Assembly: GCF_041886205.1 (NCBI RefSeq)
Contig: NZ_CP169029.1
From: Escherichia coli
GTDB lineage: Bacteria; Pseudomonadota; Gammaproteobacteria; Enterobacterales; Enterobacteriaceae
Strand: one strand, 5' to 3'
DNA: 64,000 nt
Below are positions 22,969-49,646 of this stretch, one piece after another. How positions within the stretch are numbered: position 1 is the stretch's first letter; each line of letters starts with the position of its first letter. A model generated the notes under the pieces. It ran no database searches, had not been told where the DNA came from, and was given only the letters and a program-made list of their open reading frames with translations. The position numbers and the translations under genes are program-made.

Positions 22969-23044
22969 GCCCGGATAGCTCAGTCGGTAGAGCAGGGGAT
23001 TGAAAATCCCCGTGTCCTTGGTTCGATTCCGAGTCCGGGCACCA
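22969..23044 (+). tRNA. pheU: tRNA-Phe (GAA anticodon)
   Basis: GCCCGGATAGCTCAGTCGGTAGAGCAGGGGATTGAAAATCCCCGTGTCCTTGGTTCGATTCCGAGTCCGGGCACCA; called pheU rather than pheV from yjdC flank. Confidence 0.97.
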
Positions 23045-23082: not shown

Positions 23083-23241
23083 GTTTCAGAACGCCACAAT
23101 TTAAGCGTTCTACCTACAAATCAATTCTACCGAACTCAACCAGATTCCCCCCACATCAACCCCATTGTGTGGGTATAATTGCGGGCATACCCCAGTTCGA
23201 CAGAATTTGTACCCTCTTTAACGCATTCAGAAGGCTATACT

Positions 23242-24504
23242 ATGGCACTGACTGACGCAAAAATCCGGGCTGCAAAGCCCACTGACAAGGCTTATAAACT
23301 CACTGACGGGGCTGGCATGTTCCTACTGGTTCATCCTAATGGTTCCCGTTACTGGCGTCTCCGTTATCGTATTCTGGGTAAGGAGAAGACTCTGGCACTT
23401 GGTGTGTATCCAGAAGTTTCTCTCTCCGAAGCTCGTACAAAACGGGATGAGGCCCGAAAACTGATTTCGGAGGGGATTGACCCTTGCGAACTGAAAAGAG
23501 CTAAAAAAGTAGTCCCTGATTTACAACTCTCTTTTGAACATATTGCACGACGCTGGCATGCCAGTAATAAACAATGGGCACAATCACACAGCGATAAAGT
23601 ACTCAAAAGCCTCGAGACACACGTTTTCCCCTTTATCGGCAACCGGGATATCACAACACTCAGTACCCCGGACCTGCTTATCCCTGTTCGTGCTGCAGAA
23701 GCTAAACAAATTTATGAAATCGCCAGTCGTCTGCAGCAAAGAATATCTGCTGTAATGCGTTATGCCGTACAGTCTGGCATCATCAGATATAACCCGGCTC
23801 TGGATATGGCTGGTGCATTGACCACGGTAAAACGCCAGCATCGCCCTGCACTGGATCTTTCACGCCTGCCTGAACTTCTGTCGCGTATTGACGGTTATAA
23901 AGGCCAGCCTGTCACCCGACTGGCAGTTATGCTGAATTTACTGGTTTTTATTCGTTCCAGTGAACTCAGATACGCCCGCTGGTCTGAAATTGATATTGAC
24001 AATGCCATGTGGACTATTCCAGCCGAACGCGAACCTCTGCCTGGCGTAAAATTCTCACACCGGGGCTCCAAGATGCGAACACCACATCTTGTGCCACTCA
24101 GCAAACAGGCTGTAGCCATACTGGCAGAACTACAGACATGGGCTGGTGAAAATGGTCTGATCTTTACGGGAGCACATGACCCGCGTAAACCAATCAGTGA
24201 AAATACTGTAAATAAAGCCCTGAGGGTGATGGGGTATGACACAACCCAGGATGTCTGTGGCCATGGATTCCGGGCGATGGCGTGCAGTGCATTGATTGAA
24301 TCAGGTTTGTGGTCCCGCGATGCTGTGGAACGTCAGATGAGCCATCAGGAGCGTAATGGTGTACGTGCTGCGTATATCCATAAAGCAGAACATCTGGAAG
24401 AACGGCGACTGATGTTGCAATGGTGGGCCGATTTTCTGGATGCGAACCGGGAGAAGGGTATCAGTCCGTTTGAATATGCAAAAATTAACAATCCATTAAA
24501 ATAG
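23242..24504 (+). CDS. P4-family tyrosine integrase, tRNA-Phe associated
   Basis: 441-aa ORF, about 420-aa product from MALTDAKIRAAKPTDKAYKLTDGAG; C-terminal catalytic HGFR ... AAYIH (H-x-x-R / Tyr); immediately 3' of tRNA. Confidence 0.88.
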   Translation: MALTDAKIRAAKPTDKAYKLTDGAGMFLLVHPNGSRYWRLRYRILGKEKTLALGVYPEVSLSEARTKRDEARKLISEGIDPCELKRAKKVVPDLQLSFEHIARRWHASNKQWAQSHSDKVLKSLETHVFPFIGNRDITTLSTPDLLIPVRAAEAKQIYEIASRLQQRISAVMRYAVQSGIIRYNPALDMAGALTTVKRQHRPALDLSRLPELLSRIDGYKGQPVTRLAVMLNLLVFIRSSELRYARWSEIDIDNAMWTIPAEREPLPGVKFSHRGSKMRTPHLVPLSKQAVAILAELQTWAGENGLIFTGAHDPRKPISENTVNKALRVMGYDTTQDVCGHGFRAMACSALIESGLWSRDAVERQMSHQERNGVRAAYIHKAEHLEERRLMLQWWADFLDANREKGISPFEYAKINNPLK

Positions 24505-24590: not shown

Positions 24591-24866
24591 GTGGCTTCTG
24601 TTTCTATCAGCTGTCCCTCCTGTTCAGCTACTGACGGGGTGGTACGTAACGGCAAAAGCACCGCCGGACATCAGCGCTATCTCTGCTCTCACTGCCGTAA
24701 AACATGGCAACTGCAGTTCACTTACACCGCTTCTCAACCCGGTACGCACCAGAAAATCATTGATATGGCCATGAATGGCGTTGGATGCCGGGCAACTGCC
24801 CGCATTATGGGCGTTGGCCTCAACACGATTTTACGTCACTTAAAAAACTCAGGCCGCAGTCGGTAA
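24591..24866 (+). CDS. insA: IS1 InsA
   Basis: 91-aa [20 protein letters not shown]...; zinc-finger/HTH protein of IS1. Confidence 0.95.
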
Positions 24867-25288
24867 CCTCGCGCATACAGCCGGGCAGTGACGTCATCGT
24901 CTGCGCGGAAATGGACGAACAGTGGGGCTATGTCGGGGCTAAATCGCGCCAGCGCTGGCTGTTTTACGCGTATGACAGGCTCCGGAAGACGGTTGTTGCG
25001 CACGTATTCGGTGAACGCACTATGGCGACGCTGGAGCGTCTTCTGGGCCTGCTGTCGGCCTTTGAGGTCGTGGTATGGATGACGGATGGCTGGCCGCTTT
25101 ATGAATCACGCCTGAAGGGAGAACTGCACGTTATCAGCAAGCGATATACGCAGCGCATTGAGCGGCATAACCTGAATCTGAGGCAGCATCTGGCAAGGCT
25201 GGGCAGGAAGTCACTGTCGTTCTCAAAATCGGTGGAGCTGCATGACAAAGTTATCGGGCATTATCTGAACATAAAACACTATCAATAA
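24785..25288 (+). CDS. insB: IS1 InsB (expressed as InsAB' transposase by -1 frameshift)
   Basis: 167-aa ORF in -1 frame relative to insA; matches IS1 InsB. Confidence 0.9.
24840..24848 (+). promoter_or_regulatory. IS1 programmed -1 ribosomal frameshift site (TTAAAAAAC)
   Basis: A6C slippery run at the insA/insB overlap. Confidence 0.8.
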
Positions 25289-25354
25289 GTTGGAGTCATT
25301 ACCCGCTTTGCTTTAGCGAGAACTGGTCTTTTATTCGCACTCAGGAGTACATGT

Positions 25355-26116
25355 ATGAGGATTTGCAGCGACCAACCTTGTATTGTTTTATTGACTGAAA
25401 AAGATGTCTGGATAAGGGTGAATGGGAAAGAACCTATTAGCCTTAAAGCTAACCATATGGCGTTATTAAATTGTGAAAATAATATTATCGACGTCTCCTC
25501 TCTTAACAACACTTTGGTTGCTCATATTAGTCACGACATCATCAAAGATTACCTCCGGTTTCTGAATAAAGATCTCTCGCAAATACCAGTATGGCAACGT
25601 AGCGCTACGCCCATACTCACCCTGCCATGCCTGACGCCAGACGTCTTTCGCGTTGCCGCGCAACACAGCATGATGCCCGCAGAAACTGAGTCAGAAAAGG
25701 AACGAACACGCGCATTATTATTCACGGTGCTATCCCGTTTTCTCGACAGTAAAAAATTCGTTTCATTAATGATGTATATGTTACGTAATTGTGTAAGTGA
25801 CAGCGTTTATCAAATTATTGAAAGCGATATTCACAAAGACTGGAATCTTAGTATGGTAGCCAGTTGTTTATGTCTTAGCCCAAGTCTGTTAAAGAAAAAG
25901 TTGAAAAGCGAAAACACCAGTTATAGCCAAATAATCACCACCTGCCGCATGCGTTATGCCGTAAATGAATTAATGATGGACGGTAAAAATATCTCTCAGG
26001 TATCACAGTCCTGCGGCTACAACAGTACGTCGTACTTTATTTCTGTCTTTAAAGACTTCTACGGTATGACGCCGCTGCATTATGTTAGTCAGCACAGAGA
26101 ACGCACTGTCGCCTGA
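25355..26116 (+). CDS. adiY: AraC-family regulator AdiY
   Basis: 253-aa ORF; C-terminal AraC HTH; immediately upstream of adiC. Confidence 0.92.
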   Translation: MRICSDQPCIVLLTEKDVWIRVNGKEPISLKANHMALLNCENNIIDVSSLNNTLVAHISHDIIKDYLRFLNKDLSQIPVWQRSATPILTLPCLTPDVFRVAAQHSMMPAETESEKERTRALLFTVLSRFLDSKKFVSLMMYMLRNCVSDSVYQIIESDIHKDWNLSMVASCLCLSPSLLKKKLKSENTSYSQIITTCRMRYAVNELMMDGKNISQVSQSCGYNSTSYFISVFKDFYGMTPLHYVSQHRERTVA

Positions 26117-26252
26117 TTTTTAACCTTAACGAAGAGCTATATTAATAACGGCATCAGCGATAACCCGGTCGATAATAATTCAACTATCGAATGCAGGCGT
26201 ATGATATGACGTAATTTATTGTCACGAAGCTCGCCTTCGCAGGAGTTTAATT

Positions 26253-27590
26253 ATGTCTTCGGATGCTGATGCTCACAAAGTGGGCTTAATCCCCGTCACC
26301 CTGATGGTGTCGGGGAATATTATGGGGTCAGGTGTTTTTCTGTTACCTGCAAACCTGGCCTCTACTGGCGGGATTGCCATTTATGGATGGTTGGTGACGA
26401 TTATCGGTGCACTGGGGCTCTCGATGGTATACGCCAAAATGTCGTTCCTCGACCCAAGTCCTGGTGGTTCTTACGCTTACGCCCGCCGCTGCTTTGGCCC
26501 GTTTCTCGGTTATCAAACCAACGTCCTCTACTGGCTGGCCTGCTGGATCGGCAATATCGCCATGGTGGTCATTGGCGTAGGATATTTAAGTTACTTCTTC
26601 CCGATTCTGAAAGATCCATTGGTATTAACCATCACCTGCGTCGTGGTGCTGTGGATCTTCGTCCTGCTGAACATTGTCGGTCCGAAAATGATCACCCGTG
26701 TGCAGGCAGTTGCCACCGTGCTGGCGCTGATCCCCATCGTCGGGATTGCCGTATTTGGCTGGTTCTGGTTCCGTGGTGAAACCTATATGGCGGCATGGAA
26801 CGTCAGCGGCCTGGGCACCTTCGGTGCAATTCAAAGTACCCTTAACGTTACGCTGTGGTCGTTCATCGGTGTGGAAAGTGCCTCCGTTGCCGCAGGTGTG
26901 GTGAAAAACCCGAAACGCAATGTCCCTATCGCCACCATTGGTGGGGTATTGATTGCCGCCGTTTGCTATGTACTTTCTACCACCGCGATTATGGGGATGA
27001 TCCCTAATGCCGCACTGCGCGTTTCTGCTTCGCCATTCGGTGATGCCGCACGGATGGCGTTGGGTGACACCGCCGGGGCCATTGTTTCCTTCTGCGCAGC
27101 TGCGGGTTGCTTAGGTTCACTGGGCGGCTGGACGTTGCTGGCGGGTCAAACGGCGAAAGCCGCTGCCGATGACGGACTGTTCCCACCGATTTTTGCCCGT
27201 GTAAATAAAGCGGGTACGCCAGTGGCGGGGCTGATTATCGTCGGTATTTTGATGACCATCTTCCAGCTCAGCAGCATTTCACCAAACGCGACCAAAGAGT
27301 TCGGTCTGGTTTCTTCCGTCTCGGTCATCTTTACACTGGTGCCATATCTTTACACCTGTGCGGCGTTACTGCTGCTCGGACACGGTCACTTTGGTAAAGC
27401 ACGCCCGGCATATCTGGCAGTTACTACCATTGCCTTCCTCTACTGCATCTGGGCCGTGGTGGGGTCCGGAGCGAAAGAGGTTATGTGGTCATTTGTCACC
27501 CTGATGGTCATCACCGCCATGTATGCGCTGAATTACAACCGGCTACATAAAAACCCGTATCCCTTAGATGCACCAATAAGCAAAGATTAA
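26253..27590 (+). CDS. adiC: arginine:agmatine antiporter AdiC
   Basis: 445-aa APC-family transporter ORF. Confidence 0.95.
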
Positions 27591-27613
27591 TTCCCCTTAA
27601 TCCAGCAAACATA

Positions 27614-27650
27614 AAAGCCAACCTTAAGAACTTAAGGTTGGCTTAATTTT
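27614..27650 (+). terminator. adiC rho-independent terminator
   Basis: palindrome AAAGCCAACCTTAAG-aa-CTTAAGGTTGGCTT followed by AATTTT. Confidence 0.8.
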
Positions 27651-27693
27651 GCTTTGCGAGCATATGCGCACTTTGTTCGATGGAAACACCGTG

Positions 27694-29337
27694 ATGTTGA
27701 AGCGCCTACTAAAAAGACCCTCTTTGAATTTACTCGCCTGGCTATTGTTGGCCGCTTTTTATATCTCTATCTGCCTGAATATTGCCTTTTTTAAACAGGT
27801 GTTGCAGGCGCTGCCGCTGGATTCGCTGCATAACGTACTGGTTTTCTTGTCGATGCCGGTCGTCGCTTTCAGCGTGATTAATATTGTCCTGACACTAAGC
27901 TCTTTCTTATGGCTTAATCGACCACTGGCCTGCCTGTTTATTCTGGTTGGCGCGGCTGCACAATATTTCATAATGACTTACGGCATCGTCATCGACCGCT
28001 CGATGATTGCCAATATTATTGATACCACTCCGGCAGAAAGTTATGCGCTGATGACACCGCAAATGTTATTAACGCTGGGATTCAGCGGCGTGCTTGCTGC
28101 GCTGATTGCCTGCTGGATAAAAATCAAACCTGCCACCTCGCGTCTGCGCAGTGTTCTTTTCCGTGGAGCCAATATTCTGGTTTCTGTACTACTGATTTTG
28201 CTGGTCGCCGCACTGTTTTATAAAGACTACGCCTCGTTGTTCCGCAATAACAAAGAGCTGGTGAAATCCTTAAGCCCCTCTAACAGCATTGTTGCCAGCT
28301 GGTCATGGTACTCCCATCAGCGACTGGCAAATCTGCCGCTGGTGCGAATTGGTGAAGACGCGCACCGCAACCCGTTAATGCAGAACGAAAAACGTAAAAA
28401 TTTGACCATCCTGATTGTCGGCGAAACCTCGCGGGCGGAGAACTTCTCCCTCAACGGCTACCCGCGTGAAACTAACCCGCGGCTGGCGAAAGATAACGTG
28501 GTCTATTTCCCTAATACCGCATCTTGCGGCACGGCAACGGCAGTTTCAGTACCGTGCATGTTCTCGGATATGCCGCGTGAGCACTACAAAGAAGAGCTGG
28601 CACAGCACCAGGAAGGCGTGCTGGATATCATTCAGCGAGCGGGCATCAACGTGCTGTGGAATGACAACGATGGCGGCTGTAAAGGTGCCTGCGACCGCGT
28701 GCCTCACCAGAACGTCACCGCGCTGAATCTACCTGATCAGTGCATCAACGGCGAATGCTATGACGAAGTGCTGTTCCACGGGCTTGAAGAGTACATCAAT
28801 AACCTGCAAGGTGATGGCGTGATTGTCTTACACACCATCGGCAGCCACGGTCCGACCTATTACAACCGCTATCCGCCTCAGTTCAGGAAATTTACCCCAA
28901 CCTGCGACACCAATGAGATCCAGACCTGTACCAAAGAGCAACTGGTGAACACTTACGACAACACGCTGGTTTACGTCGACTATATTGTTGATAAAGCGAT
29001 TAATCTGCTTAAAGAACATCAGGATAAATTTACCACCAGCCTGGTTTATCTTTCTGACCACGGTGAATCGTTAGGTGAAAATGGCATCTATCTGCACGGT
29101 CTGCCTTATGCCATCGCCCCGGATAGCCAAAAACAGGTGCCAATGCTGCTGTGGCTGTCGGAGGATTATCAAAAACGGTATCAGGTTGACCAGAACTGCC
29201 TGCAAAAACAGGCGCAAACGCAACACTATTCACAAGACAATTTATTCTCCACGCTATTGGGATTAACTGGCGTTGAGACGAAGTATTACCAGGCTGCGGA
29301 TGATATTCTGCAAACTTGCAGGAGAGTGAGTAAATGA
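27694..29337 (+). CDS. eptA: lipid A phosphoethanolamine transferase EptA (PmrC)
   Basis: 547 aa from [14 protein letters not shown]...; N-terminal TM region plus sulfatase-like periplasmic domain; followed by basRS. Confidence 0.95.
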
Positions 29338-36899: not shown

Positions 36900-37082
<183 letters not shown>

Positions 37083-37142: not shown

Positions 37143-37586
37143 ATGCCGTTAAGTCCCTACCTCTCTTTTGCCGGTAACTGTTCCGACGCGATTGCCTATT
37201 ATCAACGTACGTTGGGCGCGGAACTGCTCTATAAAATCAGCTTCGGCGAAATGCCAAAATCAGCGCAGGACAGCGCCGAGAACTGCCCTTCCGGAATGCA
37301 ATTTCCCGATACCGCCATCGCTCATGCCAACGTGCGCATTGCCGGAAGCGACATCATGATGAGCGATGCCATGCCGTCAGGAAAAGCCAGCTACTCCGGC
37401 TTTACGCTGGTGCTCGATTCGCAACAGGTCGAAGAAGGAAAACGCTGGTTTGACAATCTTGCCGCTAACGGAAAAATCGAAATGGCCTGGCAGGAAACTT
37501 TCTGGGCGCATGGCTTTGGCAAAGTCACCGATAAATTTGGCGTACCGTGGATGATTAATGTCGTTAAACAACAACCAACGCAATAA
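37143..37586 (+). CDS. phnB: glyoxalase/bleomycin-resistance fold protein PhnB
   Basis: 147-aa ORF; synteny between phnA and phnC. Confidence 0.88.
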   Translation: MPLSPYLSFAGNCSDAIAYYQRTLGAELLYKISFGEMPKSAQDSAENCPSGMQFPDTAIAHANVRIAGSDIMMSDAMPSGKASYSGFTLVLDSQQVEEGKRWFDNLAANGKIEMAWQETFWAHGFGKVTDKFGVPWMINVVKQQPTQ

Positions 37587-37718
37587 CCCGCCGGGAGGCC
37601 CGCCCTCCCGCACTGTCATCGAATTCCCGTTAACTCTTCATCTGTTAGTCACTTTTAATTAACCAAATCGTCACAATAATCCGCCACGATGGAGCCACTT
37701 TTTTAGGGAGGCTGCATC

Positions 37719-38507
37719 ATGCAAACGATTATCCGTGTCGAGAAGCTCGCCAAAACCTTCAATCAGCATCAGGCGCTGCATGCGGTTGATCTGAACATTC
37801 ATCACGGTGAAATGGTGGCTCTGCTTGGGCCGTCGGGTTCCGGCAAATCCACCCTTTTACGTCACTTAAGCGGTTTGATTACCGGCGATAAATCCGCCGG
37901 CAGCCATATCGAGCTGCTGGGCCGCACAGTCCAGCGCGAAGGCCGTCTGGCGCGCGATATCCGCAAAAGCCGCGCCAACACCGGCTACATCTTCCAACAA
38001 TTCAACCTGGTGAACCGCCTGAGCGTACTGGAGAACGTGCTGATTGGCGCGCTCGGCAGCACGCCGTTCTGGCGCACCTGTTTTAGCTGGTTTACCCGCG
38101 AGCAGAAACAACGCGCGTTACAGGCGCTGACCCGCGTTGGCATGGTGCATTTTGCCCATCAACGCGTTTCCACCCTCTCCGGCGGACAGCAGCAGCGTGT
38201 GGCGATTGCCCGCGCGCTGATGCAGCAGGCGAAGGTGATTCTGGCCGATGAACCCATCGCCTCGCTGGACCCGGAATCCGCCCGCATCGTGATGGACACC
38301 CTGCGCGACATCAATCAGAACGACGGCATCACCGTGGTCGTCACGCTGCATCAGGTGGATTACGCCCTGCGCTACTGCGAACGCATCGTCGCCCTGCGCC
38401 AGGGGCACGTTTTCTACGACGGCAGCAGCCAACAGTTTGATAACGAACGTTTTGACCATCTCTACCGCAGCATTAATCGCATCGAAGAGAACGCGAAAGC
38501 TGCCTGA
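37719..38507 (+). CDS. phnC: phosphonate ABC transporter ATPase
   Basis: 262 aa; Walker [10 protein letters not shown], signature LSGGQQQR. Confidence 0.96.
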
Positions 38508-38531
38508 CATCCCCATCATTGAGGAAAACGA

Positions 38532-39548
38532 ATGAACGCTAAGATAATTGCCTCGCTGGCCTTCACCAGCATGTTCAGCCTCAGCACCCTGTTAAGCCCG
38601 GCACACGCCGAAGAGCAGGAAAAGGCGCTGAATTTCGGCATTATTTCAACGGAATCACAGCAAAACCTGAAACCGCAATGGACGCCATTCTTACAGGATA
38701 TGGAGAAGAAGCTGGGCGTGAAGGTGAACGCCTTCTTTGCCCCAGACTACGCAGGCATTATCCAGGGAATGCGCTTCAATAAAGTGGATATCGCCTGGTA
38801 CGGCAACCTGTCGGCAATGGAAGCGGTGGATCGCGCCAACGGCCAGGTCTTCGCTCAGACCGTCGCGGCGGACGGATCGCCGGGTTACTGGAGCGTGTTG
38901 ATCGTCAACAAAGATAGTCCGATCAACAACCTGAACGATCTGCTGGCGAAGCGGAAAGATCTCACCTTCGGCAATGGCGATCCTAACTCCACCTCTGGCT
39001 TCCTCGTCCCCGGTTACTACGTCTTTGCCAAAAACAATATCTCCGCCAGCGACTTCAAGCGCACCGTCAACGCCGGGCATGAAACCAACGCGCTGGCCGT
39101 CGCCAACAAGCAGGTGGATGTTGCCACCAACAACACCGAAAACCTCGACAAGCTGAAAACCTCCGCGCCAGAGAAGCTGAAAGAACTGAAGGTGATCTGG
39201 AAGTCGCCGCTGATCCCAGGCGATCCGATCGTCTGGCGCAAGAATCTTTCCGAAACCACCAAAGACAAGATCTACGACTTCTTTATGAACTACGGCAAAA
39301 CGCCGGAAGAAAAAGCGGTGCTGGAACGCCTGGGCTGGGCGCCATTCCGCGCTTCCAGCGACCTGCAACTGGTGCCGATTCGCCAGCTCGCGCTGTTTAA
39401 AGAGATGCAGGGCGTGAAAAGCAATAAAGGACTGAATGAGCAGGACAAGCTGGCAAAAACCACCGAGATTCAGGCGCAGCTGGATGACCTGGACCGCCTG
39501 AACAACGCGCTAAGCGCGATGAGTTCGGTGAGTAAAGCGGTGCAGTAA
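38532..39548 (+). CDS. phnD: phosphonate ABC transporter periplasmic binding protein
   Basis: 338 aa; signal peptide. Confidence 0.96.
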   Translation: MNAKIIASLAFTSMFSLSTLLSPAHAEEQEKALNFGIISTESQQNLKPQWTPFLQDMEKKLGVKVNAFFAPDYAGIIQGMRFNKVDIAWYGNLSAMEAVDRANGQVFAQTVAADGSPGYWSVLIVNKDSPINNLNDLLAKRKDLTFGNGDPNSTSGFLVPGYYVFAKNNISASDFKRTVNAGHETNALAVANKQVDVATNNTENLDKLKTSAPEKLKELKVIWKSPLIPGDPIVWRKNLSETTKDKIYDFFMNYGKTPEEKAVLERLGWAPFRASSDLQLVPIRQLALFKEMQGVKSNKGLNEQDKLAKTTEIQAQLDDLDRLNNALSAMSSVSKAVQ

Positions 39549-39550
39549 AT

Positions 39551-39640
39551 CGTAGGTCGGATAAGACGCCCCGGCGTCGCATCCGACAATGTGCAGGCGT
39601 TGATGCCGGATGCGGTGCAAGCACCTTATCCGGCCTACAG
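39551..39640. repeat. REP units between phnD and phnE
   Basis: GTAGGTCGGATAAGACGC...GCATCCGACA and GCCGGATGCGG...CTTATCCGGCCTAC. Confidence 0.85.
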
Positions 39641-39653
39641 ACCGGAGCCAAAC

Positions 39654-40433
39654 ATGCAAACCATCACCATCGCCCCACCCAAGCGCAGCTGGTTCTCGCT
39701 TCTGAGCTGGGCCGTTGTTCTCGCCGTGCTGGTCGTCTCGTGGCAGGGCGCGGAAATGGCCCCGCTCACGCTGATTAAAGACGGCGGCAACATGGCAACC
39801 TTCGCTGCCGACTTCTTCCCGCCCGATTTCAGCCAGTGGCAGGATTACCTCACCGAAATGGCCGTCACGCTGCAAATCGCCGTCTGGGGCACCGCGCTGG
39901 CGGTGGTTCTCTCCATCCCCTTTGGCCTGATGAGCGCCGAAAACCTGGTGCCGTGGTGGGTTTACCAGCCCGTTCGCCGCCTGATGGACGCCTGCCGCGC
40001 CATTAACGAAATGGTCTTCGCCATGCTGTTCGTGGTCGCCGTCGGTCTCGGACCGTTCGCTGGCGTGCTGGCGCTATTTATCCACACCACCGGCGTGCTC
40101 TCCAAGCTGCTTTCCGAAGCGGTAGAAGCAATTGAACCTGGCCCGGTGGAAGGCATTCGCGCCACCGGTGCCAACAAGCTCGAAGAGATCCTCTACGGCG
40201 TGCTGCCACAGGTGATGCCACTGCTGATCTCCTACTCCCTCTATCGCTTCGAATCCAACGTCCGCTCGGCGACCGTCGTCGGCATGGTCGGCGCAGGCGG
40301 GATCGGCGTCACCCTGTGGGAAGCGATTCGCGGTTTCCAGTTCCAACAAACCTGCGCCCTGATGGTGCTTATCATCGTCACGGTCAGCCTGCTGGATTTC
40401 CTCTCTCAACGGTTGCGTAAGCACTTTATCTGA
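39654..40433 (+). CDS. phnE: phosphonate ABC transporter permease (uninterrupted reading frame)
   Basis: 259 aa from [17 protein letters not shown]...; polytopic permease; continuous ORF. Confidence 0.88.
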
Positions 40434-40453
40434 TAAGCGAGGCATTGATATCT

Positions 40454-41179
40454 ATGCACTTGTCTACACATCCGACCAGCTACCCAACACGCTATCAAGA
40501 GATAGCCGCAAAACTTGAGCAGGAGCTTCGTCAACACTACCGCTGCGGCGACTATCTTCCCGCCGAGCAGCAACTGGCAGCGCGCTTTGAGGTGAATCGC
40601 CACACCCTGCGCCGCGCCATCGACCAACTGGTGGAAAAAGGCTGGGTACAGCGCCGTCAGGGCGTCGGCGTGCTGGTGCTGATGCGCCCGTTCGATTACC
40701 CGCTCAACGCCCAGGCGCGTTTTAGCCAGAATCTGCTGGATCAGGGCAGCCATCCCACCAGCGAAAAACTGCTTTCGGTATTGCGCCCCGCGTCCGGCCA
40801 CGTCGCTGACGCACTGGGGATTACCGAGGGGGAGAACGTCATCCACCTGCGCACCCTGCGTCGTGTCAACGGCGTCGCGCTCTGTTTAATCGACCACTAC
40901 TTCGCGGACCTCACCCTCTGGCCGACGCTGCAACGCTTCGACAGCGGCTCGCTGCACGATTTTCTGCGCGAGCAAACCGGAATTGCGCTGCGCCGCAGCC
41001 AGACGCGGATCAGCGCCCGCCGCGCCCAGGCCAAAGAGTGCCAGCGTCTTGAAATCCCGAATATGTCGCCGCTGCTGTGCGTGCGCACCCTTAACCACCG
41101 TGACGGTGAAAGCAGCCCGGCGGAGTACTCCGTCAGCCTGACGCGCGCCGACATGATTGAATTCACTATGGAGCACTGA
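40454..41179 (+). CDS. phnF: GntR-family repressor PhnF
   Basis: 241 aa from MHLSTHPTSYPTRYQEIAAKLEQ... Confidence 0.93.
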   Translation: MHLSTHPTSYPTRYQEIAAKLEQELRQHYRCGDYLPAEQQLAARFEVNRHTLRRAIDQLVEKGWVQRRQGVGVLVLMRPFDYPLNAQARFSQNLLDQGSHPTSEKLLSVLRPASGHVADALGITEGENVIHLRTLRRVNGVALCLIDHYFADLTLWPTLQRFDSGSLHDFLREQTGIALRRSQTRISARRAQAKECQRLEIPNMSPLLCVRTLNHRDGESSPAEYSVSLTRADMIEFTMEH

Positions 41180-41632
41180 ATGCACGCAGATACCGCGACC
41201 CGCCAGCACTGGATGTCCGTGCTGGCGCACAGCCAACCGGCTGAACTGGCAGCACGCCTGAACGCGCTAAACATCACCGCCGACTATGAGGTGATCCGCG
41301 CCGCTGAAACTGGCCTGGTACAGATTCAGGCGCGGATGGGCGGCACCGGCGAACGTTTTTTTGCCGGCGACGCCACGCTGACCCGCGCCGCCGTGCGCCT
41401 GACTGACGGCACGCTCGGCTACAGCTGGGTGCAGGGGCGTGATAAACAGCACGCCGAACGCTGCGCGCTGATTGACGCGCTGATGCAGCAATCTCGCCAC
41501 TTTCAAAACTTATCAGAAACCCTTATTGCCCCGCTGGACGCTGACCGTATGGCACGCATTGCCGCACGCCAGGCCGAAGTGAACGCCAGCCGGGTCGACT
41601 TCTTTACGATGGTTCGCGGAGACAACGCATGA
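41180..41632 (+). CDS. phnG: C-P lyase core complex subunit PhnG
   Basis: 150 aa; operon position. Confidence 0.93.
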
Positions 41633-42213
41633 CCCTGGAAACCGCTTTTATGCTTCCCGTGCAGGATGCCCAGCACAGTTTTCGTCGCCTGTTAAAGGCC
41701 ATGAGCGAGCCGGGCGTGATTGTCGCCCTGCATCAGCTCAAACGCGGCTGGCAACCGCTGAATATCGCCACCACCAGCGTGCTGCTGACGCTGGCCGATA
41801 ACGACACGCCGGTGTGGCTTTCTACCCCATTAAATAACGATATCGTCAACCAGAGCCTGCGTTTTCATACCAACGCGCCGCTGGTCAGCCAGCCGGAACA
41901 GGCGACCTTCGCGGTGACGGATGAGGCGATTTCCAGCGAACAGCTCAACGCCCTTTCCACCGGCACCGCCGTTGCGCCGGAAGCGGGTGCGACGCTGATT
42001 TTACAGGTCGCCAGCCTGAGCGGCGGACGCATGTTGCGCCTTACTGGTGCGGGTATTGCCGAAGAACGAATGATCGCTCCGCAGCTGCCGGAGTGCATTC
42101 TGCACGAACTCACCGAGCGCCCGCATCCGTTCCCGCTCGGCATCGACCTGATCCTGACCTGTGGCGAGCGCCTGCTGGCTATTCCGCGAACCACTCATGT
42201 GGAGGTGTGCTGA
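41629..42213 (+). CDS. phnH: C-P lyase core complex subunit PhnH
   Basis: 194 aa; overlapping start/stop with neighbours. Confidence 0.93.
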
Positions 42214-43277
42214 TGTACGTTGCCGTGAAAGGGGGCGAGAAGGCGATCGACGCCGCCCACGCCCTGCAAGAGAGCCGACGCCGAGGCGATACCGATTTGC
42301 CCGAACTGAGCGTCGCCCAGATTGAACAGCAGCTTAACCTCGCGGTAGATCGCGTGATGACCGAAGGCGGCATTGCCGACCGCGAACTGGCGGCGCTGGC
42401 GCTGAAACAGGCCAGCGGCGATAACGTTGAAGCGATTTTCCTGCTGCGCGCCTACCGCACCACGTTGGCGAAGCTGGCGGTAAGCGAGCCGCTCGACACC
42501 ACCGGGATGCGTCTCGAACGCCGTATCTCCGCCGTTTATAAAGACATTCCCGGCGGCCAGCTGCTTGGCCCAACCTACGACTACACCCATCGCCTGCTCG
42601 ATTTTACCCTGCTGGCAAACGGCGAAGCGCCGACGCTGACCACCGCCGACAGCGAACAGCAGCCGTCGCCGCACGTTTTCAGCCTGCTGGCGCGTCAGGG
42701 GCTGGCGAAGTTTGAAGAGGATAGCGGCGCACAGCCGGATGACATCACCCGCACGCCGCCGGTTTACCCCTGCTCACGCTCCTCCCGTTTGCAGCAGTTG
42801 ATGCGCGGCGACGAAGGCTATTTGCTGGCGCTGGCCTACTCCACCCAACGCGGTTACGGGCGCAATCACCCGTTCGCAGGCGAGATCCGCAGCGGCTATA
42901 TCGACGTGTCGATTGTGCCGGAAGAGCTGGGATTTGCGGTGAACGTCGGCGAACTGCTGATGACTGAGTGTGAAATGGTTAACGGTTTTATCGACCCGCC
43001 GGGTGAGCCGCCGCACTTCACGCGCGGCTACGGGCTGGTGTTCGGCATGAGCGAGCGCAAAGCGATGGCGATGGCGCTGGTCGACCGCGCTCTGCAAGCC
43101 CCGGAGTACGGCGAGCACGCGACAGGCCCGGCGCAGGATGAAGAGTTCGTGCTGGCACATGCCGACAACGTCGAAGCCGCAGGCTTTGTCTCACACCTCA
43201 AACTCCCCCACTACGTCGATTTCCAGGCCGAACTGGAGCTACTCAAACGTCTGCAACAGGAGCAGAACCATGGCTAA
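42213..43277 (+). CDS. phnI: C-P lyase subunit PhnI (nucleosidase)
   Basis: 354 aa from [13 protein letters not shown]... Confidence 0.93.
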   Translation: MYVAVKGGEKAIDAAHALQESRRRGDTDLPELSVAQIEQQLNLAVDRVMTEGGIADRELAALALKQASGDNVEAIFLLRAYRTTLAKLAVSEPLDTTGMRLERRISAVYKDIPGGQLLGPTYDYTHRLLDFTLLANGEAPTLTTADSEQQPSPHVFSLLARQGLAKFEEDSGAQPDDITRTPPVYPCSRSSRLQQLMRGDEGYLLALAYSTQRGYGRNHPFAGEIRSGYIDVSIVPEELGFAVNVGELLMTECEMVNGFIDPPGEPPHFTRGYGLVFGMSERKAMAMALVDRALQAPEYGEHATGPAQDEEFVLAHADNVEAAGFVSHLKLPHYVDFQAELELLKRLQQEQNHG

Positions 43278-44115
43278 TCTGAGCGGCTACAACTTTGCCT
43301 ACCTCGACGAGCAGACCAAACGCATGATCCGCCGCGCCATCTTAAAAGCGGTGGCGATCCCCGGTTATCAGGTGCCGTTTGGCGGGCGCGAGATGCCGAT
43401 GCCGTACGGCTGGGGAACCGGCGGCATTCAGCTTACCGCCAGCGTGATTGGCGAAAGCGACGTGCTGAAGGTGATTGACCAGGGCGCGGATGACACCACC
43501 AACGCCGTGTCGATTCGCAACTTCTTCAAGCGCGTGACCGGGGTAAACACCACGGAACGTACGGACGATGCGACGGTTATCCAGACGCGTCACCGCATCC
43601 CCGAAACGCCGCTGACCGAAGATCAGATAATTATCTTCCAGGTGCCAATCCCCGAGCCGCTGCGCTTTATCGAGCCGCGCGAAACGGAAACCCGCACCAT
43701 GCACGCGCTGGAAGAGTACGGCGTGATGCAGGTGAAACTGTATGAAGATATCGCCCGCTTCGGTCATATCGCCACCACCTACGCCTATCCGGTGAAGGTA
43801 AATGGGCGCTACGTGATGGACCCGTCGCCGATCCCGAAATTCGATAACCCAAAAATGGACATGATGCCCGCCCTGCAACTGTTCGGCGCGGGGCGCGAGA
43901 AGCGCATCTATGCGGTGCCGCCGTTTACCCGCGTGGAAAGTCTCGATTTCGACGATCACCCGTTCACCGTTCAGCAGTGGGATGAGCCATGCGCCATCTG
44001 CGGATCGACCCACAGCTATCTTGATGAAGTGGTGCTGGATGACGCCGGAAACCGCATGTTTGTCTGCTCCGATACCGATTATTGCCGCCAACAGAGCGAG
44101 GCAAAAAACCAATGA
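43270..44115 (+). CDS. phnJ: C-P lyase PhnJ (radical SAM, C-P bond cleavage)
   Basis: 281 aa from MANLSGYNFAYLDEQ...; C-terminal Cys cluster CAICGSTHSYLDEVVLDDAGNRMFVCSDTDYC. Confidence 0.95.
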   Translation: MANLSGYNFAYLDEQTKRMIRRAILKAVAIPGYQVPFGGREMPMPYGWGTGGIQLTASVIGESDVLKVIDQGADDTTNAVSIRNFFKRVTGVNTTERTDDATVIQTRHRIPETPLTEDQIIIFQVPIPEPLRFIEPRETETRTMHALEEYGVMQVKLYEDIARFGHIATTYAYPVKVNGRYVMDPSPIPKFDNPKMDMMPALQLFGAGREKRIYAVPPFTRVESLDFDDHPFTVQQWDEPCAICGSTHSYLDEVVLDDAGNRMFVCSDTDYCRQQSEAKNQ

Positions 44116-44870
44116 ATCAACCGTTACTTTCGGTCAATAACCTGACCCACCTTTACGCGCCGGGCAAAGGCTTTAGCGATGTCTCTTTTGATTTATGGCC
44201 GGGGGAAGTGCTGGGCATTGTCGGGGAATCCGGCTCCGGGAAGACCACGCTGCTGAAGTCGATCTCCGCGCGCCTGACGCCGCAGCAGGGGGAAATTCAC
44301 TACGAGAACCGTTCGCTGTATGCAATGAGCGAGGCCGACCGCCGTCGCCTGCTGCGTACCGAATGGGGCGTGGTGCATCAGCATCCACTCGACGGCCTGC
44401 GCCGCCAGGTGTCGGCAGGCGGCAATATCGGCGAGCGGCTGATGGCGACCGGGGCACGTCATTACGGCGATATTCGTGCCACCGCGCAGAAGTGGCTGGA
44501 AGAGGTGGAGATTCCCGCCAACCGGATCGACGACCTGCCGACCACCTTTTCCGGCGGTATGCAGCAGCGTTTGCAGATTGCCCGCAACCTGGTGACGCAT
44601 CCGAAGCTGGTGTTTATGGATGAACCGACCGGCGGGCTGGATGTGTCGGTGCAGGCCCGCCTGCTCGACCTGCTGCGCGGCCTGGTGGTGGAGCTGAACC
44701 TCGCGGTGGTGATTGTCACCCATGATTTAGGCGTCGCCCGCCTGCTGGCGGACCGTTTGCTGGTGATGAAGCAGGGGCAAGTGGTGGAGAGTGGGTTAAC
44801 CGACCGCGTGCTCGACGACCCGCATCATCCGTATACACAGCTGCTGGTGTCATCGGTTTTGCAGAATTGA
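44112..44870 (+). CDS. phnK: C-P lyase accessory ATP-binding protein PhnK
   Basis: 252 aa; Walker [10 protein letters not shown]. Confidence 0.94.
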
Positions 44871-44960
<90 letters not shown>

Positions 44961-44980
44961 CCCGAACCACGAGGCGAAAA

Positions 44981-45661
44981 ATGATTAACGTACAAAACGT
45001 CAGTAAAACCTTCATCCTGCACCAGCAAAACGGCGTGCGCCTGCCCGTCCTCAATCGCGCCTCGCTCACCGTCAACGCGGGCGAATGCGTGGTGCTCCAC
45101 GGCCATTCCGGCAGCGGCAAATCAACTCTGCTACGCTCGCTGTACGCCAACTATCTACCCGACGAAGGTCAAATCCAGATCAAACACGGTGACGAGTGGG
45201 TAGACCTGGTCACCGCGCCAGCGCGCAAAGTGGTGGAAATCCGCAAAACCACCGTCGGCTGGGTGAGCCAGTTTCTGCGCGTCATCCCGCGTATCTCAGC
45301 ACTGGAAGTGGTGATGCAGCCGCTGCTCGATACCGGCGTTCCGCGTGAAGCCTGCGCCGCTAAAGCCGCGCGTCTTCTCACCCGCCTGAACGTGCCGGAA
45401 CGCCTGTGGCACCTGGCACCATCGACATTTTCCGGTGGCGAACAGCAGCGCGTCAACATCGCCCGCGGCTTTATCGTCGACTACCCCATTCTGCTGCTTG
45501 ACGAACCTACCGCCTCGCTGGACGCCAAAAACAGCGCCGCGGTGGTGGAACTGATTCGCGAAGCCAAAACCCGTGGCGCAGCCATCGTAGGCATCTTCCA
45601 TGACGAAGCTGTACGTAATGACGTCGCCGACCGCCTGCACCCAATGGGAGCCTCTTCATGA
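44981..45661 (+). CDS. phnL: C-P lyase ATP-binding protein PhnL
   Basis: 226 aa from [11 protein letters not shown]...; Walker [10 protein letters not shown]. Confidence 0.94.
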
Positions 45662-46794
45662 TTATCAATAACGTTAAGCTGGTGCTGGAAAACGAGGTGG
45701 TAAGCGGTTCGCTGGAGGTGCAGAACGGCGAAATCCGCGCCTTTGCCGAAAGCCAGAGCCGCCTGCCGGAGGCGATGGACGGCGAAGGCGGCTGGCTGCT
45801 GCCGGGGCTGATTGAGCTGCATACCGATAATCTGGATAAATTCTTCACCCCGCGCCCGAAAGTTGACTGGCCTGCCCACTCGGCGATGAGCAGCCACGAC
45901 GCGCTGATGGTGGCGAGCGGCATCACCACCGTACTGGATGCCGTGGCAATTGGCGACGTGCGCGACGGCGGCGATCGGCTGGAGAATCTGGAGAAGATGA
46001 TCAACGCCATCGAAGAGACGCAGAAACGCGGCGTCAACCGCGCCGAGCACCGTCTGCATCTGCGCTGCGAACTGCCGCATCACACCACGCTGCCGCTGTT
46101 TGAAAAACTGGTGCAGCGCGAGCCGGTGACGCTGGTGTCGCTGATGGACCACTCGCCGGGCCAGCGCCAGTTCGCCAACCGCGAGAAGTATCGCGAATAT
46201 TATCAGGGCAAATACTCCCTCACTGATGCGCAGATGCAGCAGTACGAAGAAGAGCAACTGGCGCTCGCCGCACGCTGGTCGCAGCCGAATCGCGAATCCA
46301 TCGCCGCCCTGTGCCGCGCGCGAAAAATTGCGCTTGCCAGCCACGATGACGCCACCCACGCCCACGTTGCTGAATCTCACCAGCTTGGCAGCGTGATCGC
46401 CGAATTTCCCACCACGTTCGAAGCGGCGGAAGCCTCGCGCAAGCATGGCATGAACGTGCTGATGGGCGCGCCGAATATTGTGCGCGGCGGCTCGCACTCC
46501 GGCAACGTGGCGGCCAGTGAACTGGCGCAGCTTGGCCTGCTGGATATCCTCTCTTCCGACTACTACCCCGCCAGCCTGCTCGATGCGGCATTTCGCGTCG
46601 CCGATGACGAGAGCAACCGCTTTACGCTGCCGCAGGCGGTGAAGCTGGTGACTAAAAATCCAGCGCAGGCGCTTAATCTCCAGGATCGCGGGGTGATTGG
46701 CGAGGGCAAACGCGCCGACCTGGTGCTGGCGCATCGCAAGGACAATCATATTCATATCGACCACGTCTGGCGTCAGGGTAAAAGGGTGTTCTGA
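45658..46794 (+). CDS. phnM: RPnTP diphosphohydrolase PhnM (amidohydrolase family)
   Basis: 378 aa; HxH-type metal site (ELHTDNLDK). Confidence 0.94.
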
Positions 46795-47351
46795 TGATGG
46801 GAAAACTGATTTGGTTAATGGGGCCGTCCGGCTCCGGGAAAGACAGCCTGCTGGCGGAACTCCGCCTGCGGGAACAAACTCAGTTACTGGTGGCGCATCG
46901 CTACATCACGCGCGATGCCAGCGCCGGAAGTGAAAACCATATCGCCCTGAGCGAGCAGGAGTTTTTTACCCGCGCGGGGCAAAATCTGTTGGCCTTAAGC
47001 TGGCACGCTAACGGTCTGTATTATGGCGTCGGCGTCGAGATTGATCTCTGGCTGCACGCCGGATTCGACGTGCTGGTCAACGGCTCACGCGCCCATCTGC
47101 CGCAGGCGCGGGCGCGCTATCAATCGGCGCTGCTGCCCGTCTGTTTACAGGTTTCGCCGGAGATCCTCCGCCAGCGCCTGGAAAACCGTGGCCGTGAAAA
47201 CGCCAGTGAAATTAACGCCCGCCTGGCGCGCGCCGCCCGCTATACTCCACAGGATTGCCATACGCTCAACAATGACGGCAGCCTGCGCCAGTCGGTCGAC
47301 ACGCTGCTGACGCTGATCCATCAGAAGGAGAAACACCATGCCTGCTTGTGA
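46794..47351 (+). CDS. phnN: ribose 1,5-bisphosphate phosphokinase PhnN
   Basis: 185 aa; P-loop [10 protein letters not shown]. Confidence 0.94.
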
Positions 47352-47772
47352 GCTTCGCCCGGCCACGCAGTACGACACCGACGCGGTTTACGCGCTGATT
47401 TGTGAGCTAAAACAGGCGGAGTTTGACCACCACGCGTTTCGCGTGGGTTTTAACGCCAATCTGCGCGACCCAAACATGCGCTACCATCTGGCGCTGCTTG
47501 ATGGCGAAGTTGTCGGCATGATCGGCCTGCATTTGCAGTTTCATCTGCATCATGTCAACTGGATCGGCGAAATTCAGGAGTTGGTGGTAATGCCGCAGGC
47601 GCGCGGTCTGAACGTCGGCAGTAAGTTACTGGCGTGGGCAGAAGAAGAAGCCCGCCAGGCCGGGGCCGAAATGACCGAACTTTCGACCAACGTGAAGCGC
47701 CACGACGCGCACCGTTTCTATCTGCGCGAAGGCTACGAGCAGAGCCACTTCCGCTTCACCAAGGCGCTGTAA
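47338..47772 (+). CDS. phnO: aminoalkylphosphonate N-acetyltransferase PhnO
   Basis: 144 aa; GNAT fold. Confidence 0.93.
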
Positions 47773-47773
47773 C

Positions 47774-48532
47774 ATGAGCCTGACCCTCACGCTCACCGGC
47801 ACCGGCGGCGCACAGGGCGTTCCGGCATGGGGCTGCGAGTGTGCGGCCTGCGCCAGAGCGCGGCGCTCGCCGCAGTATCGCCGCCAACCGTGCAGCGGCG
47901 TAGTGAAGTTTAACGACGCAATCACCCTGATCGACGCCGGGCTGCACGATCTCGCCGATCGTTGGTCGCCCGGATCGTTCCAGCAGTTTTTGCTGACGCA
48001 TTATCATATGGATCACGTCCAGGGGCTGTTTCCGCTGCGCTGGGGCGTTGGCGATCCGATCCCGGTTTACGGCCCGCCGGATGAACAGGGCTGCGACGAT
48101 CTGTTTAAACATCCGGGCCTGCTTGATTTCAGCCACACGGTGGAACCGTTTGTGGTGTTTGATTTGCAGGGGTTACAGGTCACGCCCCTGCCGCTCAACC
48201 ACTCAAAACTGACCTTCGGTTATCTGCTGGAAACGGCACACAGCCGGGTGGCGTGGCTGTCTGACACCGCAGGCTTGCCGGAAAAAACGCTGAAATTTTT
48301 ACGCAATAATCAGCCGCAGGTAATGGTGATGGATTGCAGTCACCCGCCGCGCGCGGATGCACCGCGTAATCACTGTGATTTAAATACCGTGCTTGCGCTG
48401 AATCAGGTTATCCGCTCGCCACGGGTGATTCTGACCCATATCAGCCACCAGTTTGATGCGTGGCTGATGGAAAACGCACTACCGTCAGGGTTTGAGGTGG
48501 GGTTTGATGGGATGGAGATTGGGGTGGCGTGA
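47774..48532 (+). CDS. phnP: phosphoribosyl cyclic phosphodiesterase PhnP (metallo-beta-lactamase fold)
   Basis: 252 aa; HxHxDH motif ([10 protein letters not shown]). Confidence 0.94.
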
Positions 48533-48540
48533 TGAGAGGG

Positions 48541-48660
48541 AATGTGCGCGCTGGCCCCCTCACCCTAACCCTCTCCCCAGAGGGGCGAGGGGACCGATTG
48601 TGCTCGATATTGAATATTGCGCTCGTTTTCTCCCTCTCCCCATTGGGGTGAGGGGCGATG
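48541..48660. repeat. paired G/C-rich palindromic intergenic repeats (BoxC-like)
   Basis: two copies of CCCTC(A/T)CCC...GGGG(C/T)GAGGGG-type imperfect palindromes; family name uncertain. Confidence 0.4.
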
Positions 48661-48678
48661 CCTGCTCCATACCCAACC

Positions 48679-49008
48679 TCATCGCCCATACTCATCTTCC
48701 ATTCTCCGCTCTTCATCCTCCAGTTGCCGACGCTCCTGATCAAGCTGGCGCTGGCGATCGTCCAGCTGCCTGCGGCGATCTTCAAACTGGCGGCGGCGGT
48801 CGTCATATTGTCTGCGCCGATCGTCGCTCACTTCACGCTGCCAGCCGTCGTCGCGCGAATCTTCATAGTCTCGCCCACGGTCAGGGTTATAAGCGTCATT
48901 AATCGCCTGCTGAATATTGCCAATGGTGTCGTCGATAATATCGGCCTGGGCCGGAACGGTGGACAGCGTGAGCAGGGTGAATAAAAGAAATAGCGGAAAG
49001 CGTTTCAT
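48679..49008 (-). CDS. yjdP: secreted low-complexity protein YjdP
   Basis: 109 aa; signal peptide MKRFPLFLLFTLLTLSTVPAQA followed by D/E/R/Q-rich repeats. Confidence 0.8.
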   Translation of the reverse strand: MKRFPLFLLFTLLTLSTVPAQADIIDDTIGNIQQAINDAYNPDRGRDYEDSRDDGWQREVSDDRRRQYDDRRRQFEDRRRQLDDRQRQLDQERRQLEDEERRMEDEYGR

Positions 49009-49076: not shown

Positions 49077-49394
49077 TCAATTTCTCCGCTGCTCTATTGC
49101 CGTAATCGCCTCCACGCGTTGTTGATGACGACCGCCTTCGTACTGTGCGCCCAGCCACGCATCCACAATCATTTTTGCCAGTTCGAGGCCAACCACTCGT
49201 GAACCAAAAGCCAGTGCAACTTCACTGGCGTAATGCGGATAATCAGTGCGCTCTGACGACCTGGTTTCTTTATCAATCCCCTCACTCATTGACCATGAAT
49301 AAAAGGCTGGCACAGCAACACAGAATCCTGCGGTGCCAGCGACATGACCGCCCATTGCTCCGGTACGTTTTTTAATAAAAAACACCGGTTGCAT
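49077..49394 (-). pseudogene. rpiB: rpiB-like remnant (ribose-5-phosphate isomerase B fragment)
   Basis: 105-aa ORF; C-terminal about 60 aa (SSERTDYPHYAS...FGSRVVGLELAKMIVDAWLGAQYEGGRHQQRVEAITAIEQRRN) match my recollection of RpiB; the catalytic-loop segment is missing and the N-terminal 40 aa are unrelated. Confidence 0.6.
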
Positions 49395-49646
49395 TGATTA
49401 ATTGTGCTCAGTATTTGCCGAAGTACAATATATATAATAAATATATAAAACACCTCATATTATTTACAGAGATAATAAATTCGCGTACTTTTCCCTCTTC
49501 AGCACAAATGCCTAATAAAATGGCGCGTTCAGCTCACACTTCCACTTATTAAAGTCGCAATTTCCCAATTATGATAACGCCAGCTTTAAATGACGTATTT
49601 TGCATGGATTACATATTTACGACATAAATGATAAATGGAGATTTAT

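Follow-up and report, generated by a model that had tools for sequence, protein, structure and literature searches.

Uninterrupted phnE with two 8-bp units within a complete phnCDEFGHIJKLMNOP operon of an Escherichia coli chromosome

The stretch of DNA analysed here, referred to below as the window, comprises 64 kb of an Escherichia coli chromosome. It contains on its plus strand the 14 genes for phosphonate uptake and carbon-phosphorus (C-P) lyase-mediated degradation, phnC to phnP, together with the intergenic region upstream of phnC. The genes and features of this locus are listed below in the order of their occurrence, together with the family models matched by their products.

37587..37718, + strand: yjdN-phnC intergenic region, containing a pho-box-like sequence, CTGTTAGTCACTTTTAATTAAC; expected site of the PhoB-dependent phnC promoter
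37719..38507, + strand: phnC, ATPase of the PhnCDE ABC importer, 262 aa; NF007438, 608 bits (cut-off 365), full length
38532..39548, + strand: phnD, periplasmic phosphonate-binding protein, 338 aa; TIGR03431, 376.5 bits (cut-off 261)
39549..39653, + strand: phnD-phnE spacer, 105 bp, with REP-like palindromic units; identical to K-12
39654..40433, + strand: phnE, continuous frame of 259 codons in the ON state, encoding the membrane permease of PhnCDE
40059..40074, + strand: two tandem 8-bp units within phnE, GCTGGCGT GCTGGCGC (codons 136-141, ORF nt 406-421); slippage-prone tract
40454..41179, + strand: phnF, GntR-family regulator, 241 aa; NF007486, 518.6 bits (cut-off 363); 100% nt identity to K-12
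41180..41632, + strand: phnG, C-P lyase core subunit; TIGR03293, 178.8 bits (cut-off 89); 100% nt identity to K-12
41629..42213, + strand: phnH, C-P lyase core subunit; TIGR03292, 205.2 bits (cut-off 91.5); 100% nt identity to K-12
42213..43277, + strand: phnI, C-P lyase core subunit (RPnTP synthase); PF05861, 512.9 bits; 100% nt identity to K-12
43270..44115, + strand: phnJ, radical-SAM subunit cleaving the C-P bond; PF06007, 502 bits; 100% nt identity to K-12
44112..44870, + strand: phnK, ABC-type ATPase of the C-P lyase complex; TIGR02323, 412.3 bits (cut-off 302.85); 100% nt identity to K-12
44871..44980, + strand: phnK-phnL spacer, 110 bp, with REP-like sequence; no difference from K-12, REP-type translations in the ORFs that cross it
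44981..45661, + strand: phnL, ABC-type ATPase; TIGR02324, 370 bits (cut-off 256.3); protein identical to that of K-12
45658..46794, + strand: phnM, RPnTP diphosphatase, Q318E relative to K-12 and B; NF011981, 808 bits (cut-off 375)
46794..47351, + strand: phnN, ribose 1,5-bisphosphokinase; NF007485, 357.8 bits (cut-off 153); 100% nt identity to K-12
47338..47772, + strand: phnO, aminoalkylphosphonate N-acetyltransferase; NF007530, 314.7 bits (cut-off 142); 100% nt identity to K-12
47774..48532, + strand: phnP, cyclic phosphate phosphodiesterase; TIGR03307, 431.7 bits (cut-off 272.25); protein identical to that of K-12

The 14 genes follow one another in the canonical order on one strand, and each of them is as long as its counterpart in K-12 and E. 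coli B REL606 and free of internal stops, which bears out the statement of a preliminary description of this DNA that phnC through phnP are all full length. Curated family models match all 14 products almost from end to end with scores above the cut-offs, 12 of them in NCBIfam (equivalog models); PhnI and PhnJ, for which no NCBIfam match was obtained, are above those of PF05861 and PF06007 in Pfam. PhnJ retains Cys241, Cys244, Cys266 and Cys272 as well as Gly32, all of which we take to be catalytic residues. The same description attributed overlapping start and stop codons to the operon as a whole; such overlaps are present at seven of the 13 junctions (G/H, H/I, I/J, J/K, L/M, M/N and N/O) and absent from the other six, where, according to the junction table, phnF and phnG abut, and gaps of 24, 105, 20, 110 and 1 bp occur at the junctions C/D, D/E, E/F, K/L and O/P, respectively. 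Judging from the appearance of the sequence, the units of the phnD-phnE spacer are presumably REP elements.

In the list of SNPs, positions 37566-37843 of the window, including the whole yjdN-phnC intergenic region, are identical to the relevant sequence of K-12. Makino et al. are said to have placed a Pho-box promoter in the yjdN-phnC region in 1991. The promoter upstream of phnC is presumably the same as that of K-12 and Pho-regulated.

The reading frame of phnE, as found both in the ORF listing and by direct reading, extends from ATG at 39654 to TGA at 40431-40433 and comprises 259 codons and the stop codon. Its product matches the TIGR01097 equivalog model with 311.5 bits (cut-off 216.7, E=4e-93), and on account of this score phnE cannot be regarded as a chance ORF. 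Residues 16-258 of PhnE align with positions 8-251 of the 252 positions of the model, and residues 88-258 are covered by the Pfam domain BPD_transp_1 (PF00528) with 91.8 bits. The loop downstream of the 8-bp repeat, which from a reading of its sequence we assume to be the EAA-type cytoplasmic loop, is read in frame. The assignment of PhnE to the importer is consistent with the presence, directly upstream, of its partner genes phnC (ATPase) and phnD (binding protein), the products of which are both above equivalog cut-offs. The earlier account of phnE as a continuous 259-codon ORF at 39654-40433 is exact in its coordinates.

The mechanically delimited ORF of phnE reaches further upstream, to GTG at 39591, and the annotation of the K-12 pseudogene starts at the counterpart of ATG at 39603, 51 nt upstream of ATG 39654. 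We rejected both GTG 39591 (which would give a protein of 280 aa) and ATG 39603 as the phnE start, as both fall within the REP-like palindromes between phnD and phnE. A GGAG Shine-Dalgarno sequence is found 6 nt before ATG 39654. An N-terminal extension of PhnE is not needed, given that the alignment with TIGR01097 begins with model position 8 already at residue 16. PGAP likewise calls phnE as a gene of 780 bp.

The difference between the window phnE and that of K-12 concerns an 8-bp unit with the consensus GCTGGCG(T/C), which is present in three copies in MG1655 (GCTGGCGT GCTGGCGT GCTGGCGC) and in two copies in the window (GCTGGCGT GCTGGCGC). When positions 39549-40454 of the window were aligned with the sequence of MG1655 (NC_000913.3), a single indel was found in the phnD-phnF interval, and it is located at the repeat. 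Alignment with K-12 thus confirms that the frameshifting 8-bp duplication is absent from the window phnE, as the preliminary description had expected, two units standing against three in MG1655. Neither the alignment nor the pattern search revealed a third GCTGGCGT unit at ORF nt 406-429, which places the window outside the K-12-type cryptic class. The pattern search over the 64 kb found no such site other than the tract at 40059-40074, the chance expectation being 0. The 8-bp array does not appear in the output of Tandem Repeats Finder, where two copies score too low, and it was located by the alignment and the pattern search.

Read from the ATG used in the window, the K-12 frame diverges after residue 140; the residues from 141 onward form an aberrant tail, and a stop comes after codon 189. 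The third unit (+8 bp) costs the K-12 permease its C-terminal half, including the EAA-type loop, whereas the window keeps this half in frame. Removal of one 8-bp unit from K-12 phnE yields exactly the PhnE protein of the window, all 14 nucleotide differences between the two being synonymous. The window protein is also identical to PhnE of E. coli B REL606 (WP_001193500.1).

Strain K-12 is deficient in growth on phosphonates through the 8-bp duplication, and its revertants lose this duplication (PMC3463581; PMC6469041; PMC4759930). The deletion in a K-12 revertant has been described as the loss of 5'-GCTGGCGT at ORF nt 407-414 (PMC6469041); the tract of the window starts at nt 406 and is the same tract. 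Like the products of the phn(EcoK+) revertants with the 8-bp deletion (Makino 1991; Iqbal 2004; Stasi 2019, strain RI57), the window PhnE equals that of K-12 minus one unit. In contrast to these laboratory revertants, the window carries a natural allele with B-type synonymous SNPs. The reversion of K-12, which occurs at high frequency, has been attributed to replication slippage (PMC4759930). Even with two copies, the tract remains a short direct repeat, in which slippage could produce the OFF state.

The frequency of the two states was assessed by searching 5,426 complete E. coli genomes with a 118-nt probe from K-12 that has the three-copy tract at its centre. The matches fall into three classes according to their identity to the probe.

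At least 99% identity: 1,000 records; span of 118 nt in the sampled matches; three copies
95-99% identity: 9 records, none of them among the matches listed; counted as three copies
Below 95% identity: 4,379 records; span of 110 nt in every full-length sampled match but one; two copies

Across the repeat, about 1,009 records thus have three copies, a number inflated by, though not limited to, laboratory derivatives of K-12, about 4,379 are consistent with two copies, and at least one has four. In other words, about 81% of records share the two-copy state of the window, and about 19% carry the three-copy OFF tract. In the three-copy class, seven of 11 evenly spaced matches among those listed name a human, chicken or dog host. 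The one sampled match with a different span is the four-copy tract of strain FDAARGOS_1248 (NZ_CP069542.1, a human isolate), where four 8-bp units at 647-678 give a span of 126 nt in a gene of 796 bp annotated as 'frameshifted'. Two, three and four copies of the phnE unit all occur, therefore, in complete genomes. Because the population counts and the literature agree, the finding reported here is that of a known common allele: the ON state of phnE is the majority state in the species and has already been well described. As a by-product, the count puts about one fifth of complete E. coli records in the OFF state, which fits the slippage-driven, phase-variable view of phnE in the literature.

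Short tandem repeats can in principle be miscounted, and the two-copy state could then be an artefact of assembly or sequencing, with a true three-copy tract collapsed. We consider such an artefact extremely improbable. A tract of 16 to 24 bp is trivial for any sequencing platform, and the same 110-nt span is found in the approximately 4,379 complete-genome records mentioned above. Moreover, strains wlxctx60 (NZ_AP045833.1) and 6EVA each match the surrounding 24 kb (window positions 30000-54000) at 100.0%, and phnE of wlxctx60 is annotated with a length of 780 bp. In the matching stretch of wlxctx60, PGAP lists 14 phn genes, none of them flagged as a pseudogene.

The whole operon was compared with those of K-12 MG1655 (cryptic phn(EcoK0), with phnE as pseudogene b4583) and E. 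coli B REL606 (phn(EcoB), NC_012967). Relative to K-12, the window shows no difference in the intergenic spacers or upstream of phnC, and phnF-phnP have nucleotide identities of 99.97-100% (3 differences in about 8 kb); the proteins PhnD, PhnF-L and PhnN-P are the same in both. The genes phnC, phnD and phnE differ from their K-12 counterparts at 24, 18 and 14 synonymous or near-synonymous sites, respectively, and PhnC differs at four amino acid residues. REL606 shares with the window all 14 genes, their order and the two 8-bp units, its phnC is without a single nucleotide difference, and PhnC and PhnE are identical in protein sequence. In contrast, phnH, phnI and phnJ of the window differ from those of REL606 by 10, 31 and 15 nucleotides and are of K-12 type instead, and PhnD, PhnG, PhnI, PhnJ, PhnK, PhnM and PhnP each differ from the REL606 proteins by one or two residues. 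All 14 products are residue for residue identical to the K-12 or the B protein, save for PhnM Q318E, which is the only residue found in neither. At least 1,471 further records in the collection of complete genomes contain the exact 61-nt context of PhnM E318, and for this reason we regard Q318E as a common natural allele.

Both E. coli B and the phn(EcoK+) revertants of K-12 are proficient in growth on phosphonates (PMC3463581; PMC6469041; PMC4759930). The window PhnE, being identical in protein sequence to PhnE of E. coli B and of the K-12 revertants, would function in vivo as a transporter of phosphonate, and of phosphate as well. Growth of the window strain on phosphonate is a strong sequence-based prediction, and the reading of the operon as an active uptake and degradation pathway, put forward in the preliminary description, is supported to the extent that sequence data allow. 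From what is known of the pathway, phosphate limitation would lead PhoB to activate the promoter in front of phnC. Periplasmic PhnD would then bind phosphonate, and PhnE would import it, driven by the ATPase PhnC. PhnI, together with PhnG, PhnH and PhnL, is predicted to join the phosphonate to the ribose moiety of ATP, PhnM to remove pyrophosphate, and the radical-SAM enzyme PhnJ to cleave the C-P bond, after which the product would be converted to PRPP by PhnP and PhnN. Aminoalkylphosphonates would be acetylated by PhnO, and PhnF is a putative regulator.

An operon that is intact in sequence might nevertheless be silent or impaired, owing to PhnM Q318E, to the four residues in which PhnC differs from that of K-12, or to a defect located elsewhere, for instance in phoBR. 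The residue E318 is indeed absent from both K-12 and B, and our inspection covered the 64-kb window, outside which PhoB, PhoR and the remaining genome lie. However, the phnC gene does not differ by any nucleotide from that of Phn+ E. coli B, the 61-mer containing E318 recurs in the at least 1,471 records noted above, the replacement of Q by E is conservative, and PhnM matches its equivalog model with 808 bits. We therefore judge an impaired operon to be very unlikely. The reading that we prefer, with a probability of roughly 0.9, is that the window represents an E. coli chromosome, K-12-like over part of its length, with a standard phnCDEFGHIJKLMNOP operon and with phnE in the common ON state. 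The strain is predicted, like most E. coli, to use alkylphosphonates as a phosphorus source and to take up phosphate via PhnCDE. The pseudogene annotation of K-12 phnE should not be transferred to it; beyond annotation, the finding has little significance.

A three-way comparison of the window with K-12 and B divides the operon region into alternating segments.

37844-38840: B-type
39122-39479: K-12-type
39719-40139, containing the repeat: B-type
40208-47792: K-12-type

A B-type patch of about 0.4-0.7 kb, embedded in otherwise K-12-type sequence, thus carries the ON tract, and the switch from B-type to K-12-type takes place 66-134 bp downstream of the 8-bp repeat. Elsewhere in the window, 25304-29000 contains no SNPs relative to K-12 in 3.7 kb, and 40140-49000 contains three in about 9 kb; the flanks of both stretches are 1-3% divergent. 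The patchwork of the phn operon is ordinary recombinational mosaicism of E. coli.

This pattern allows, though it does not show, the arrival of the ON tract on a short recombination patch. Under such a scenario, the ON allele would be neither ancestral nor a product of slippage, and would have been gained by short-patch homologous recombination over an OFF three-copy allele. In the three-way SNP map, the segment 39719-40139 differs from K-12 at 15 positions and from B at none, while its flanks, 39122-39479 and 40208-47792, are of K-12 type. The same pattern would result, however, if K-12 or B were the recombinant, and such mosaicism extends along the whole window. The comparison covered K-12 and B, and the scenario concerns the history of the allele and not its present function. 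We consider this origin of the tract unlikely. Similarly doubtful is a broader proposal, according to which the copy number of the phnE unit would be a contingency switch in natural E. coli and no mere laboratory peculiarity of K-12, and the ON tract of the window may have been regained by recombination and not by slippage. This proposal starts from the occurrence of two, three and four copies among complete genomes, with human, chicken and dog isolates in the three-copy class, and from the B-type patch around the tract.

Two features in other parts of the window, the integrase-IS1 junction at pheU and the absence of the als operon, are more unusual than the state of phnE. The tRNA-Phe gene pheU (22969-23044) is followed by an ORF for a tyrosine recombinase/integrase (23179-24504), and an IS1 element (insA/insB, about 24591-25303) directly abuts adiY (25355-26116). 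This integrase-IS1 junction takes the place of 24.5 kb of K-12 sequence, from adiA to cadC, with adiA, melRAB, yjdF, fumB, dcuB, dcuRS, yjdIJ, ghoST, lysU, dtpC and cadABC. With the region of adiA and cadABC missing, the strain would therefore be without both the lysine and the arginine decarboxylases. The whole pheU-integrase-IS1-adiY arrangement was found in none of the 15 best-scoring complete genomes, and the IS1-adiY junction is present as a single aligned piece in only three records. In wlxctx60, a smaller and different IS1-bounded deletion is located next to pheU (26633-28830 of NZ_AP045833.1); it takes cadCBA and the 5' part of dtpC, encoding the N-terminus, and keeps adiA-lysS. This strain also appears to be without melB, melA running straight into yjdF. 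The different extent of the IS1-bounded deletion in wlxctx60 suggests repeated IS1-mediated deletions at the pheU site in this lineage.

Downstream of the phn operon, at 49214-49423, the window lacks the D-allose operon (alsRBACEK) together with the 5' part of rpiB, a stretch of about 6.8 kb in both K-12 and REL606. What is left between yjdP and yjcS is a truncated rpiB remnant of 318 bp, in agreement with the annotation of strains 504239 and wlxctx60. Upstream of the operon, between yjdM and yjdN (36900-37079), a REP/BIME-like tandem unit of 100 bp is present in 1.8 copies, compared with 5.8 copies in K-12 MG1655, and this array is therefore variable in copy number.
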